Shown here piece after piece: positions 1-7,230 of a stretch of 7,230 bases of DNA. Position numbers and translations under genes: made by a program. The notes under the pieces were generated by a model that was given only the letters and a program-made list of their open reading frames with translations, did not search any database and was not told the DNA's origin. Location: the IMG/VR virus record IMGVR_UViG_2713897075_000011. One strand, given 5' to 3'. This DNA is from a virus. Its lineage: Duplodnaviria > Heunggongvirae > Uroviricota > Caudoviricetes. The stretch's first letter is position 1. Each line of letters opens with the position of its first letter.

Positions 1-138
1 GGTGTAAGTGAACTGCAGTTGCCATGTTTTACGGCAGTGAGAGCAGAGATAGCGCTGATGTCCGGCGGTGCTTTTGCCGTTACGCACCACCCCGTCAGTA
101 GCTGAACAGGAGGGACAGCTGATAGAAACAGAAGCCAC
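1..138 (-). CDS. insA: IS1 InsA, first 46 codons only (GTG start at 138; gene runs off the window)
   Basis: Minus-strand frame from GTG at 138-136 translates [46 protein letters not shown], matching the InsA N-terminus as I recall it. Confidence 0.8.
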
Positions 139-3796: not shown

Positions 3797-4117
3797 TCAG
3801 TGCAGCGCCGGTGCGGTGATATGACGGGCGCAGAGTTCATCCATCACGGTCAGCCCGAGAAAAGACAGCGACGGCGCGGCCTTGAGTGGTCCGGCTTCCA
3901 TTAAATCTTCGAGCAGGGCACAGGCAATCTGACGGCCTTTTTCCTCGCCGTGCTGGCGCAGGTAGAAGCCCTCCAGCTCGGTCGCAATGGCGCTTTCCAG
4001 CGTACTGAGCGTGAGCTGCGGGTAGCGGTGCTGACGTTCGCACAGGGTCAGCCAGGCACAGGCGACCGCCCGGCGATAGAGCGCAGCGCGCAGAACGGGA
4101 GATAATGCGGTTTTCAT
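3797..4117 (-). CDS. Hypothetical protein, 106 aa ([16 protein letters not shown]...), directly upstream of the primase gene
   Basis: Internal start of ORF-track frame 3797-4306. ATG at 4117-4115 is preceded by GGGAGGG and overlaps the stop of the upstream gene as ATGA (translational coupling). The N-terminal extension of the track ORF has no SD. Stop is 12 nt before the primase SD/start region. No family recognised. Confidence 0.6.
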
Positions 4118-4374
4118 ACACTGCCCTCCCCGGTCAGCCAGCGCTGATTGCAGCGGTCGACCACACCATCGAGCCGGGCAGTCATGAGGTAAATCACCGA
4201 GGTGAGCTGTAGCGGCTGCGCCGGATTGTGGCGCAAAGAGGTGCAGTCCTGCACCTGCATCAGGTCGCCGACAAGCTGGCCGACATTGCGAAGATGTTCG
4301 AGACATTCAAGGTCTGCCCGGCTGATGGTGGGCTGGTTTATATTCTGTGGCCGTTCCGTACTGTTAACAGGCAT
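4114..4374 (-). CDS. Hypothetical protein, 86 aa ([28 protein letters not shown]...)
   Basis: ORF-track frame 4114-4419. Preferred start is the ATG at 4374-4372, preceded by AGGAGA with a 7-nt spacer; the upstream ATG at 4419 lacks an SD. The stop overlaps the next start (ATGA). No family recognised. Confidence 0.6.
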
Positions 4375-4895: not shown

Positions 4896-5187
4896 GGTGC
4901 TCCCCTCCGTTTCCTGACGTCGTGGCGAGAAAGTCACGGCACAGACCTTTGGCTTTTAGCTCTTCCAGGACGTAGCTGACGTCCTCATGGATATAACTAA
5001 AAATCTGCGGCAGGTATAGCTGGTGTAAACCGTTCAGTTCACGGCGCAGCAAATCTCCACCGATGAACTGCGAGACGGCGCTGGCGCGATTGAGTTTATG
5101 GTACGCCTCTATGCTGAGGTGTTCCTGCATGGGGTTAAGGTCATCACGACGCGCTGAGACGGTCTGAGGGGTGTTTTTATTAGGCAT
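4888..5187 (-). CDS. Hypothetical protein, 99 aa ([32 protein letters not shown]...)
   Basis: Internal start of ORF-track frame 4888-5433. ATG at 5187-5185 preceded by GAGGT with a 5-nt spacer; the start overlaps the last codons of the 65-aa gene (ATGCCTAA). The upstream part of the track ORF lies in the non-coding leader. No family recognised. Confidence 0.6.
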
Positions 5188-5377
5188 GTGATACCTCAAC
5201 AACCGGCAGACGGGCGGCAAGGGAAAGCACGTATTCCCGGACAAGGGTGCGGCGGGCGGCCAGCTCGTCACCGGCCACGGTGCGGAGCATACAGATACGG
5301 GGTTTACGGTCTGCGCGACGGACGGCGGCAAACACAAAGACAAACTGCGGGTGTGACGGGGTGAGGGTCGTAGCCAT
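5180..5377 (-). CDS. Hypothetical small basic protein, 65 aa ([65 protein letters not shown]); first cistron after the leader
   Basis: ATG at 5377-5375 preceded by a strong SD AAGGAGG with an 8-nt spacer. It is the 3' third of ORF-track frame 5180-5779, whose upstream 134 codons are W/C/R-rich, span a terminator and overlap the regulator gene, so only the nested 65-codon gene is called. Sits where P4 has kil (by position only). Confidence 0.55.
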
Positions 5378-5434
5378 AGGGGCAACCTCCTTGAAGTAGC
5401 GGTTATTGCCACCACCGGAGTTCCTACACTCATG

Positions 5435-5513
5435 GGTGGTAGCCCGGACGGGGGTAGGAATACCGGCCTTCAAGGAAACCGGCCAGCCCGAGGGCTGCCC
5501 CGCCCGGACCACC
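5435..5513 (-). ncRNA. Candidate structured regulatory RNA (~79 nt, GC-rich three-way fold) in the leader; possible P4 CI-like immunity RNA
   Basis: Minus-strand sequence GGUGGUCCGGGCGGGGCAGCCCUCGGGCUGGCCGGUUUCCUUGAAGGCCGGUAUUCCUACCCCCGUCCGGGCUACCACC. The ends pair (GGUGGU/ACCACC and CCGGGCGGGG/CCCCGUCCGG with one G-U), enclosing two hairpins (CAGCC..GGCUG and GGCCGG..GGCCGG). Boxes CCUUGAAGG and UUCCUAC are complementary to motifs found twice nearby. Folding was done by eye only. Confidence 0.35.
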
Positions 5514-5580
5514 ATTATCTGATACAGGCCAGTGTGAAACCACCACAGACCAAAAATAAGGTGTGCCTGAGCAACGACGT

Positions 5581-5603
5581 AAAAAAAGACGCATGGCGCG
5601 TCT
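5581..5603 (-). terminator. Candidate intrinsic terminator in the leader downstream of the AlpA/Vis-like gene
   Basis: On the minus strand: stem AGACGC, loop GCCAU, stem GCGUCU, then UUUUUU (plus strand AAAAAAA-GACGC-ATGGC-GCGTCT). The stem is short (6 bp). Confidence 0.5.
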
Positions 5604-5730
5604 GGTGTCGCCTTGAAGTAACACGGGTTCCTACGCCCGGCTGTCGATTTTGCGACAGCGACAAAACTGTACCAGGAAACACACAACGGATGCAAGCCAG
5701 AAAAAGGGACTTTGTGAGAATGGCTCTGAT

Positions 5731-5997
5731 TCATGCGTCGTATTTCCGGTTGCGGTGCGCGACACGTTCTGCCATCCACGCCGTGATTTCAGACTGTAGC
5801 CAGGCGACATTTTTACCCCCTAGGGAAACCTGCGCCGGGAAAGCATTGCGGGCAATTAAATCGTAGAGCGTGGAACGGGACAGGCCGCACTGATGAATGA
5901 CTTCCGGGAGACGTAAAAAACGTTCCTGAGCCGGGGCTGAAACCGGCATCGGGTGCGTGCCAGTGGAGGAAGATGGTACTGATGAAACTGTGTGCAT
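5731..5997 (-). CDS. alpA: AlpA/Vis-family phage transcriptional regulator / excision accessory protein, 88 aa
   Basis: ORF track. Translation contains the AlpA-type helix-turn-helix [52 protein letters not shown] at 5997 is preceded by GAGGT with a 6-nt spacer. Same size and position as P4 vis (first gene of the leftward late transcript), from memory. Confidence 0.85.
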
Positions 5998-5999
5998 AA

Positions 6000-6056
6000 C
6001 GCTACCTCGTTAATATCCGCAGAGATCCGGACGTGTCCGTCCGGTATCAGGTAGCG
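6000..6056 (-). promoter_or_regulatory. Nested inverted repeats immediately upstream of the AlpA/Vis-like gene and overlapping its SD
   Basis: Outer arms CGCTACCT (6000-6007, includes the complement of the SD) and AGGTAGCG (6049-6056); inner hairpin CCGGACG-tgtc-CGTCCGG (6027-6044). Could sequester the SD in the mRNA or act as an operator. Confidence 0.45.
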
Positions 6057-6099
6057 CTCTATTTTGTGAATATTTTTTCTCAATGCAACAGGGGGAAAT

Positions 6100-6117
6100 T
6101 GTACAAAGCACGGGACA
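6100..6117 (-). promoter_or_regulatory. TGT-N12-ACA dyad upstream of the AlpA/Vis-like gene; candidate helper-activated late promoter (PLL-like)
   Basis: TGT at 6100-6102 and ACA at 6115-6117 with exactly 12 bp between. This dyad is the Ogr/Delta activator site centred near -55 in P2/P4 late promoters (established). The dyad centre is ~111 bp upstream of the ATG at 5997. Confidence 0.4.
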
Positions 6118-6149
6118 ACGGGTGCTGTTTTTTTACTCAAGACCATTTA

Positions 6150-6180
6150 AAGGCACTGGAAGGAGTTATAAGGCACTGGA
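6150..6180. repeat. 11-bp direct repeat AAGGCACTGGA x2 with 20-bp period
   Basis: Seen directly at 6150-6160 and 6170-6180, between the divergent promoters and the ori iterons. Confidence 0.5.
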
Positions 6181-6276
6181 GATTTCAAAAGTGAAATGCA
6201 AATTGATTTAATCACCATAAGAGCATGAATTAATAGGATATACCGCATAAAATTTACATTCGGGATGTTCAGACCA

Positions 6277-6378
6277 GTGAACAGTAGTGAACAGTTGGTG
6301 AACACTTCTTTCTCAACTGTTCACTCTTTAATTTATTGTTTTACTTATATTTTTATACTGAGTGAACAGTAGTGAATA
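6277..6378. repeat. ori-like iteron cluster with an AT-rich unwinding stretch
   Basis: GTGAACA at 6277-6283, 6287-6293, 6298-6304, 6362-6368; TGTTCAC at 6318-6324; degenerate GTGAATA at 6372-6378. AT-rich stretch 6325-6360 lies between the copies. Same heptamer as the cluster at 1308-1398, about 5 kb away, as for P4 ori and crr (about 4.5 kb apart, from memory). Confidence 0.75.
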
Positions 6379-6456
6379 GTTATTAGTAAAAAAACAAACA
6401 GAGTGAGGGGTTTACCTGCGACCTTTCTCTGGCCAGCCGGGTTTTTAAGTCCTGTT

Positions 6457-6474
6457 TGTGCCACGTCTGCTACA
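6457..6474 (+). promoter_or_regulatory. TGT-N12-ACA dyad upstream of the plus-strand gene; candidate helper-activated late promoter (Psid-like)
   Basis: TGT at 6457-6459 and ACA at 6472-6474 with 12 bp between. Dyad centre is ~83 bp upstream of the ATG at 6549, compatible with a -55 activator site and a short leader. Confidence 0.4.
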
Positions 6475-6548
6475 ACGGCAATGAATCGAGTTGTTGTCTG
6501 AGGGACGGCAGAATGGCGTCAGGTTGAAAACACAGAGAGAACCCGACG

Positions 6549-7230
6549 ATGAAACCAGATTTGTTTACCGCAGTAATGAAAACCATCGGCAGCACGCAGG
6601 ATGAGAACATCCGCACGGCCATTGACAGCGCACTGGATACCCTTAACGAGAAAGCAAACCAGAACGCAGAGGCCACGATAAATAACGCGCTTGAGGCATT
6701 CAGCAAGGCCAAATCCGCGCACACGGAAAACATGCTGAAACTGAATGATATTGATGCGGCTATTACCCGCAGCGAGAAAGAGCGTCAGAACGCCCTGAAT
6801 GAAAGTGCCGAAGCCGAACAGAACTGGCGTACCCGTTTTCGCGAACTGCGCGGCATGATGACCCCGGAACTGAAAGCCGAACACAGTCAGCGAGTGGCCG
6901 GTCGGGAGCTGGCGGAGGAATTCACCGCCCTGATTGATGAACTCAACGATGATAAGGCCAGTACCATGCTGTCCGCCTGTACATCAGGAGATAAGTACGT
7001 CGGCACGCATTTTACGGTGTTCTCTGCCTACTCCCGGAATGAGTGGGCGACCGTGATGAAAGACATCCCTCCCTCACTGGTGCGCGCATTTGCGTTACGT
7101 CTGCGTGAACTCGAAATGAAGGGGGAAGAACACCCTCACAACATTCTCATTCAGGAACTGGGGGAGAATGTACTGGCGCAAAGCAGGTATTACACATTCA
7201 ACATGGCGCAGGTGTCAACGACGGATGAAA
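6549..7230 (+). CDS. 5' portion (227 codons, no stop within window) of the first gene of the rightward operon; Sid-like by position only
   Basis: Not in the ORF track because it runs off the window. My translation from ATG 6549: MKPDLFTAVMKTIGSTQDENIRTAIDSALDTLNEKANQNAEATINNALEAFSKAKSAHTENMLKLNDIDAAITRSEKERQNALNESAEAEQNWRTRFRELRGMM... continuous to the window end. Composition is strongly helical (A/E/K/L-rich). Divergent from the AlpA/Vis-like gene across ori, as sid is in P4; P4 Sid is about 244 aa (from memory). Weak SD. Confidence 0.6.
   Translation, partial: MKPDLFTAVMKTIGSTQDENIRTAIDSALDTLNEKANQNAEATINNALEAFSKAKSAHTENMLKLNDIDAAITRSEKERQNALNESAEAEQNWRTRFRELRGMMTPELKAEHSQRVAGRELAEEFTALIDELNDDKASTMLSACTSGDKYVGTHFTVFSAYSRNEWATVMKDIPPSLVRAFALRLRELEMKGEEHPHNILIQELGENVLAQSRYYTFNMAQVSTTDE

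Follow-up and report, generated by a model that had tools for sequence, protein, structure and literature searches.

The window (the whole stretch of 7,230 nt of DNA that was analysed) matches, at 100% identity, a segment of the chromosome of E. coli O6:H16 as well as 13 other genomes, and the segment lies in a P4-like prophage adjoining tRNA-Leu. The gene order matches that of the left operon of the satellite phage P4: AlpA/vis, leader, Kil, epsilon, an orf151-like gene, DUF5375 (orf106), alpha and int. The alpA/vis homologue takes the position of ORF88 in P4. The gene that follows kil is a homologue of epsilon (Pfam 'Derepression', E = 9e-47); after it come satellite replication genes, with an alpha primase-helicase of 777 aa that is intact. 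Further on, the prophage also carries sid, delta and psu, as seen in Pfam and NCBIfam matches and in the RefSeq annotation. Decay of the prophage shows in two int pseudogenes, in an IS1 at the left end of the window and in an IS100 between sid and delta.

Several details of the neighbourhood lie outside the leader. The prophage looks tandem (window 1-138 and 167-949; 5492-6871 and 13279-17177 of the locus L002): IS1 cuts off one N-terminal int fragment, which comes after alpha in the window, and a second N-terminal int fragment lies beside tRNA-Leu. Remnants of BREX (brxA) are found beyond IS1. An 86-aa ORF at 4117-4374 on the minus strand (PHROG 10110, function not assigned) sits between the orf151-like gene and DUF5375, a place for which the P4 annotation table has no gene. 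Few complete E. coli genomes carry this exact leader, with an identity of 99% or more in 15 of 20,395 records, and some homologue of it is present in 2,823 of 5,426 genomes.

Between the alpA/vis homologue and kil, and partly overlapping both the leader and kil with the reading frame of eta, we find the following features, listed in the direction of transcription:

5731-5997, minus strand: alpA/vis homologue (P4 orf88), upstream of the leader; Pfam Phage_AlpA, E = 5.8e-19
5180-5734, minus strand: eta homologue, 184 aa; its ATG at 5734 overlaps the alpA/vis stop codon as ATGA, and it ends where kil ends
5666-5695, minus strand: PLE-like promoter; -35 TTGCAT (5695-5690), 18-nt spacer, -10 TACAGT (5671-5666), TGn before the -10
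5582-5659, minus strand: IsrK-like leader RNA (the 'seqA' leader of P4); Rfam RF01394 isrK
5611-5634, minus strand: seqA target; box 2 GUAGGAA (5634-5628), box 1 CUUCAAGG (5618-5611)
5581-5603, minus strand: rho-independent terminator, equivalent of t1; 7-bp stem (5603-5587), 3-nt loop, seven U to 5581
5432-5519, minus strand: CI RNA gene (C4 antisense RNA family); Rfam RF01695
5454-5475, minus strand: seqB; box 1 CCUUGAAG (5475-5468, loop of hairpin 2), box 2 UUCCUAC (5460-5454, single-stranded junction)
5386-5427, minus strand: seqC target; box 2 GUAGGAA (5427-5421), box 1 CUUCAAGG (5396-5389)
5180-5377, minus strand: kil, 65 aa, Icd-like; ATG at 5377

Elements of the leader

The PLE-like promoter aligns with the same region of P4, which reads TTGCCT, 18 nt, TATAGT. 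A consensus promoter scan of 5150-6100 called no sigma-70 site, and the promoter assignment therefore rests on homology; by analogy with P4 the putative promoter would be active. The -10 TAnAGT and the GGCTTGC at the -35 are kept among the leaders of relatives (alignment A2, described below). At 5666-5674 on the minus strand the -10 TACAGT is preceded by TGG, an extended -10 'TGn' that P4 does not have: P4 and most relatives carry (A/G)G(A/G)TATAGT at this place, without the TG.

Scanning the window with Rfam at gathering thresholds yielded exactly two matches. The first is RF01394 (isrK), which scores 74.2 bits (cut-off 50, E = 6e-15) and covers model positions 1-77 of 77; the second is RF01695 (C4), which scores 84.5 bits (cut-off 45, E = 4e-16) and covers model positions 1-87 of 87. 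Homologues of IsrK have been equated with the seqA leader of P4, and the C4 family with the CI RNA of P4 (PMC3632133, Barquist et al.; PMC4825925, Hershko-Shalev et al.). The IsrK-like leader is made up of a 5' hairpin, a hairpin presenting box 2 of seqA, box 1 of seqA and the terminator t1, the hairpin of which starts 7 nt past seqA box 1. Terminator prediction called t1 independently of the Rfam isrK match; P4 has a near-identical sequence at the same position, and the element is invariant or nearly so in alignment A2.

The CI RNA element folds into a 17-bp closing stem spanning 5514-5437 that encloses two internal hairpins. Its predicted minimum free energy is -54.5 kcal/mol (z = -4.8), and none of 200 shuffled sequences is as stable. 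This predicted fold agrees with the structure of the C4 model, with the boxes in the second loop and in the 3' junction; the loop that holds box 1 is partly closed in it by three weak pairs (U-A, U-G and U-G).

The boxes of seqB are complementary to both flanking targets at 15 of 15 nt each. On the minus strand CCTTGAAGG is found at 5475-5467 and TTCCTAC at 5460-5454, both within the CI element, while GTAGGAAC occurs at 5634-5627 (seqA) and 5427-5420 (seqC), and ACTTCAAGG at 5619-5611 (seqA) and 5397-5389 (seqC). The window of 7.2 kb matches the pattern GTAGGAA-N(1-30)-CTTCAAGG three times. The two minus-strand matches are seqA (5634-5611) and seqC (5427-5389), and the single plus-strand match, at 5454-5475, is the complement inside the CI element. 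The same pattern has no match in 200 dinucleotide shuffles. In a sliding duplex scan with a 31-nt segment of seqB, a noisy scan because the segment includes GC-rich stem bases, seqA and seqC came out as the best minus-strand sites (-33 and -31 kcal/mol) over a background of -16.5 +/- 5.3 kcal/mol. Box 1 of seqC overlaps the Shine-Dalgarno sequence of kil, GGAGG at 5390-5386, with CTTCAAGGAGG at 5396-5386.

Much of this layout had been anticipated by a first-pass annotation of the same DNA. The structured element of ~79 nt that it placed at 5513-5435 corresponds to the closing stem and to the somewhat longer Rfam match, and the two complementary targets that it described on either side are both present, the upstream one adjoining a terminator (stem, then a T-run to 5581) and the downstream one covering the Shine-Dalgarno sequence of the 65-aa gene. 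The motifs that it quoted on the minus strand are all found within one base of where it had put them; the downstream target, for instance, starts at 5427 and had been given as 5428.

The product of kil is 89% identical to P4 Kil and contains an Icd-like domain (NCBIfam NF033153 phage_ICD_like, 71 bits); a Pfam search of the 65-aa Kil gave no family. By homology with P4, kil would be the first gene translated from the PLE transcript and would contain the Rho-dependent terminator timm. In P4 coordinates timm lies at 8365-8209 (PMC3177188), which corresponds to about 5377-5221 in the window.

The frame of eta spans the promoter, seqA, t1, CI and seqC. Across the leader this frame is free of stops in 145 of 158 related loci among the matches listed, and the other two frames have on average 5.4 and 2.3 stops in the same loci. 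The spacer between t1 and CI, which comes in 16 distinct lengths (66-149 nt) among the matches listed, is congruent to 1 modulo 3 in 159 of 165 loci among them. We considered whether the 184-aa RefSeq CDS could be an over-extended start, with the Icd-like domain making up residues 131-178 only, and rejected this, as the frame is conserved and matches known eta: the CDS is not an artefact, it is the known eta gene. That kil is the tail of eta and that translation of eta prevents termination is described for P4 in a passage of PMC10111431 that cites Forti 1999. One stretch of DNA here is at the same time promoter, terminator, antisense RNA, two target sites and coding sequence. That the whole leader lies inside the conserved eta frame is a point absent from the first-pass annotation.

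Covariation among related loci

We have scanned two public collections with a pattern in which only hairpin 2 and the beginning of the closing stem are specified, while the boxes may take any sequence. The scan yielded at least 240 loci, at least 231 of them with full flanks; at least 181 of the full-flank loci have a downstream Kil homologue, a criterion that is independent of complementarity. Eighteen pattern matches in Actinomycetes and other GC-rich genomes have neither complementary flanks nor a Kil homologue and were discarded as chance matches. In 174 of the 181 Kil-homologue loci among the matches listed, seqA and likewise seqC show no more than one mismatch in 15 nt to the complement of the seqB of the same locus. 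When the seqB of other loci is used instead, mostly 3-5 mismatches are seen.

For a column-wise comparison we used alignment A2, comprising 104 distinct leaders from the matches listed with at most three per box type. For seqA with seqB the share of paired cells is 99.0%; double-change cells number 420 versus 111 in shuffles, and controls in which the pairing was slid reach at most 51%. For seqB with seqC the paired share is 99.4%, double-change cells number 424 versus 113 in shuffles, and slid controls reach at most 46%. The complementarity, the loss of which in related elements without compensatory changes the first-pass annotation had named as evidence against its proposal, is kept across the 104 leaders. 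As for the internal fold of CI, all 27 pairs are 100% paired in the 104 relatives and 9 pairs covary, though pairs in helix 3 and in the inner closing stem are uninformative, as the search pattern itself prescribes them. At one box position, 28-30 sequences of A2 have wobbles of U (in seqB) with G (in the target). On the other strand the same wobbles would be A-C mismatches, which points to a constraint that acts on the minus-strand RNA.

In L009 (7047-7427; A2 columns 124-150) box 2 of seqA, GTGAGAA, meets a seqB box of UUCCUAC with one mismatch and one wobble, and there are a few recombinant-like loci in which seqA is imperfectly and seqC perfectly complementary to seqB. This hints that seqA tolerates more mispairing than seqC.

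Comparison with P4 and a candidate mechanism

Over 501 nt around the leader the window aligns with the cI region of P4 at 70.8% identity. The locus matches the P4 immunity region (PLE, seqA, t1, CI RNA/seqB, seqC, kil/eta, timm) in order, spacing, strand and structure. The RNA stems, the terminator, the 5' hairpin and the promoter hexamers are conserved and the flanking genes are alike; the spacer between t1 and CI is 45 nt shorter than that of P4, a difference that stays in frame. The boxes are another matter. Box 1 of seqB reads CCUGUGAA in P4 and CCUUGAAG in the window, and box 2 reads UUCUCAC in P4 and UUCCUAC in the window; correspondingly, seqA and seqC both read GUGAGAA...UUCACAGG in P4 and GUAGGAA...CUUCAAGG in the window. 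In all, 6 of the 15 box positions differ, each of them compensated at both targets.

The predicted duplex energies follow the same division. Cognate duplexes of the CI element with its two targets come to -24.9 and -30.8 kcal/mol for the window and to -27.0 and -32.4 kcal/mol for P4, while cross duplexes between the window and P4, in either direction, are predicted at -12.2 to -21.7 kcal/mol, that is, weaker by 9-15 kcal/mol. As 6 of 15 box positions differ and the targets have changed to match, heteroimmunity to P4 is to be expected: judging by its boxes and by the modelled duplexes, the element should be immune only to satellites that carry the same boxes.

Every sequence-level feature by which membership of Rfam C4, of isrK and of P4-type immunity is recognised is present at the locus. 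The features of the P4 type comprise a seqA followed by an intrinsic terminator, a seqC over the start of kil, a kil that is the end of eta, and a satellite genome around them. The first-pass annotation had seen the design of P4 immunity in this leader and had added that the specificity may differ. The design is borne out by the two full-length Rfam matches, the homology to P4 cI and the P4-like left operon, and the compensated box changes with their weaker predicted cross-duplexes speak for a different specificity as well. The locus is an ordinary member of the known P4-type system with a specificity allele of its own, and the earlier proposal was a correct rediscovery of that system.

The locus, then, is an antisense-RNA immunity switch in a decayed P4-like prophage of enterotoxigenic E. 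coli. More fully, we read it as the homologue, in a P4-like satellite prophage, of the P4 immunity region PLE-seqA-t1-cI-seqC-kil, acting by the P4-type mechanism with heteroimmune boxes, and we assign this reading a probability of roughly 0.88.

The mechanism has been described for P4 (PMC4825925, PMC3632133, PMC10111431): P4 genetics identified the RNA as the immunity factor (PMC4825925, PMC10111431), and CI RNA is a listed substrate of RNase P (PMC5499578). By analogy with P4, the constitutive PLE-equivalent promoter (~5695-5666) would start a transcript at ~5659, and the stem-loop 5514-5437 would be excised from this leader transcript to yield a stable small CI RNA, presumably as in P4, where RNase P makes the 5' end and the 3' end is trimmed in a PNPase-dependent way. 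Pairing of CI with seqA (5634-5611) would enhance termination at t1 and in this way limit the synthesis of CI itself. Pairing with seqC (5427-5389) would mask the ribosome-binding site of kil, so that kil is not translated, and this predicted duplex could extend over GGAGG by an A-U pair and two G-U pairs. The untranslated transcript would then terminate before epsilon and alpha; in P4 it does so at t4 and, inside kil, at the Rho-dependent timm. Again on the P4 model, ribosomes translating eta through the leader would let transcripts from the upstream late promoter escape termination. Work by Briani et al. 2000 and Forti et al. 1999 reportedly underlies part of this P4 mechanism.

A faithful copy of a P4-type switch could also be an inactive relic, no longer expressed or needed in a prophage whose int genes are truncated and which has taken up IS1 and IS100. 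That IsrK-like elements of P4-like prophages were required in transposon screens of S. Typhi (PMC3632133) weighs against this, and so does the state of the locus itself. All of its parts are intact, from the promoter, the terminator and the RNA to the two targets (15 of 15 nt each), eta/kil, epsilon and alpha (777 aa), and an intact kil and alpha would need continued repression. With all parts of the switch and the genes that it would silence in place, the locus argues for continued function, without proving it, and we hold decay into a relic to be unlikely.

Related systems and diversity of the boxes

The C4 RNA of phages P1 and P7 (c4-icd-ant) belongs to the same Rfam family as the CI element, has two exposed boxes that pair with sites in the same transcript, and regulates a first ORF that is Icd-like. 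Specificity differs between P1 and P7 through compensated box changes. Processing of the P1/P7 C4 RNA by RNase P has been reported (PMC5499578). Unlike in P1 and P7, the locus studied here is without an antirepressor gene and its operon encodes satellite replication functions; it also differs in having an intrinsic terminator after the upstream target and in having the RNA inside the eta frame. It is not a c4-icd-ant unit of the P1/P7 type, because no ant gene follows.

One could still suppose that the RNA acts solely as it does in P1 and P7, that is, as a translational repressor masking the ribosome-binding site of the Icd-like gene, with any effect on transcription due to Rho polarity and with seqA serving as a decoy or a processing element. 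The shared Rfam family, the Icd-like domain of the regulated ORF and the overlap of seqC with the Shine-Dalgarno sequence would all be explained, but the place and the conservation of seqA would not: it lies directly before a conserved intrinsic terminator, as in P4, and covaries with seqB as tightly as seqC does. CI moreover reportedly enhances termination at t1 of P4 (Briani et al. 2000), and kil is followed by epsilon, not by an ant gene. We consider a purely translational switch of this kind distinctly improbable.

An IsrK-like leader followed by a C4-like processed RNA is also found in Gifsy-1 (IsrK/STnc1160, Salmonella), in N15-type phages (phiKO2, PY54) and in Stx phages (PMC4825925). 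Unlike the window, these systems control the expression of an antirepressor in complete temperate phages; IsrK reportedly switches on translation in trans, and the leader here is not expected to play that role. In a BLAST search the C4-like part of the query matches N15-type phages (phiKO2, PY54) and Vibrio and Ralstonia phages, as well as many Stx-converting phages, where it lies beside ant or 'regulatory protein' genes. The C4-like part also has 919 places on E. coli plasmids that are annotated 'ash family protein'. The C4-like RNA is generally hidden under protein annotations.

Transferred to the window, activation as described for Gifsy-1 IsrK/orf45/anrP (PMC4825925) would mean that the leader RNA 5659-5582 opens a read-through transcript in trans and turns on the downstream ORF. 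The isrK model is indeed matched over its full length, and a predicted fold of the whole leader (292 nt) pairs the region upstream of CI with the seqC/Shine-Dalgarno region; yet that fold is not robust (its ensemble frequency is 0.0007), and the leader has the polarity and the sequence of seqC and is complementary to CI only, not to the Shine-Dalgarno region. As the locus is moreover P4-like and not Gifsy-like, activation in trans is very hard to credit. Least plausible of all, to the point of being negligible, is that the repeats are features of DNA or protein, such as half-sites of a protein-repressor operator or repeated peptide motifs of Eta, as the conserved open reading frame around the leader, the old P4 annotation 'cI gene product (AA 1-137)' and the PHROG label 'transcriptional repressor' might suggest: seqB is reverse-complementary to seqA and seqC and stays so when both partners change, and only one strand tolerates G-U wobble, a pattern that fits RNA pairing and neither an operator nor a peptide repeat; the Rfam covariance model matches, and P4 genetics named an RNA as the immunity factor (PMC4825925, PMC10111431).

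A P4-type switch with changed boxes has a known counterpart in the retronphage phiR73, which is P4-like and heteroimmune to P4 and which, going by its description, is the same kind of variant as the window. The specificity of phiR73 reportedly resides in seqB, with compensating changes in seqA and seqC (Sabbattini et al. 1996, Virology 216:389; cited in PMC7567579). A large census of P4-like elements does not mention the immunity RNA (PMC8628076), and in the searchable literature, which is incomplete, we have found no survey of box diversity in P4-like immunity.

Among the matches listed, the 181 Kil-homologue loci contain 25 box-1 and 8 box-2 sequences in 49 combinations, and one and the same box 1 occurs with up to four different box 2 sequences. 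The box type of the window (CCUUGAAG/UUCCUAC) is a common allele in this sample, being present in 16 of the 181 Kil-homologue loci among the matches listed. Among close relatives, divergence in the box columns runs 6-12 times faster than elsewhere in the leader. Near-identical leaders that differ by 0.6% outside the boxes differ by 3.6% in the 45 box columns; where divergence outside the boxes is 1.5%, it is 18% in these columns, and where it is 3.2% outside, it is 24% within. The hypervariable box columns of A2 are 124-150, 333-354 and 384-424. For example, the loci L001 (P4), L015, L030, L036 and L048 have near-identical backgrounds and four different box combinations.

Such divergence of the boxes, with seqA, seqB and seqC changing together, speaks for diversifying selection or for immunity specificities that are often exchanged as modules. 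We incline, by a little over even odds, to seeing the boxes as a fast-evolving modular 'barcode' that is under diversifying selection for exclusion and coexistence between one satellite and another. If the barcode reading is true, the sampled loci carry dozens of heteroimmune classes.

For annotation, the value of the locus lies in what is now missing from it: RefSeq shows only a CDS for an 'Icd-like protein', and two curated RNA elements and the RNA switch that they belong to are unannotated. The comparative data are a very clean natural example of three-site RNA-RNA covariation. In the ETEC strain, the toxic kil and the alpha replication gene of this decayed prophage are probably silenced by the switch, and the switch would set which incoming P4-like satellites the strain excludes. 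For P4-like satellites at large, the data suggest that immunity specificity is highly diversified, and knowledge of the boxes could help to predict which satellites are compatible.
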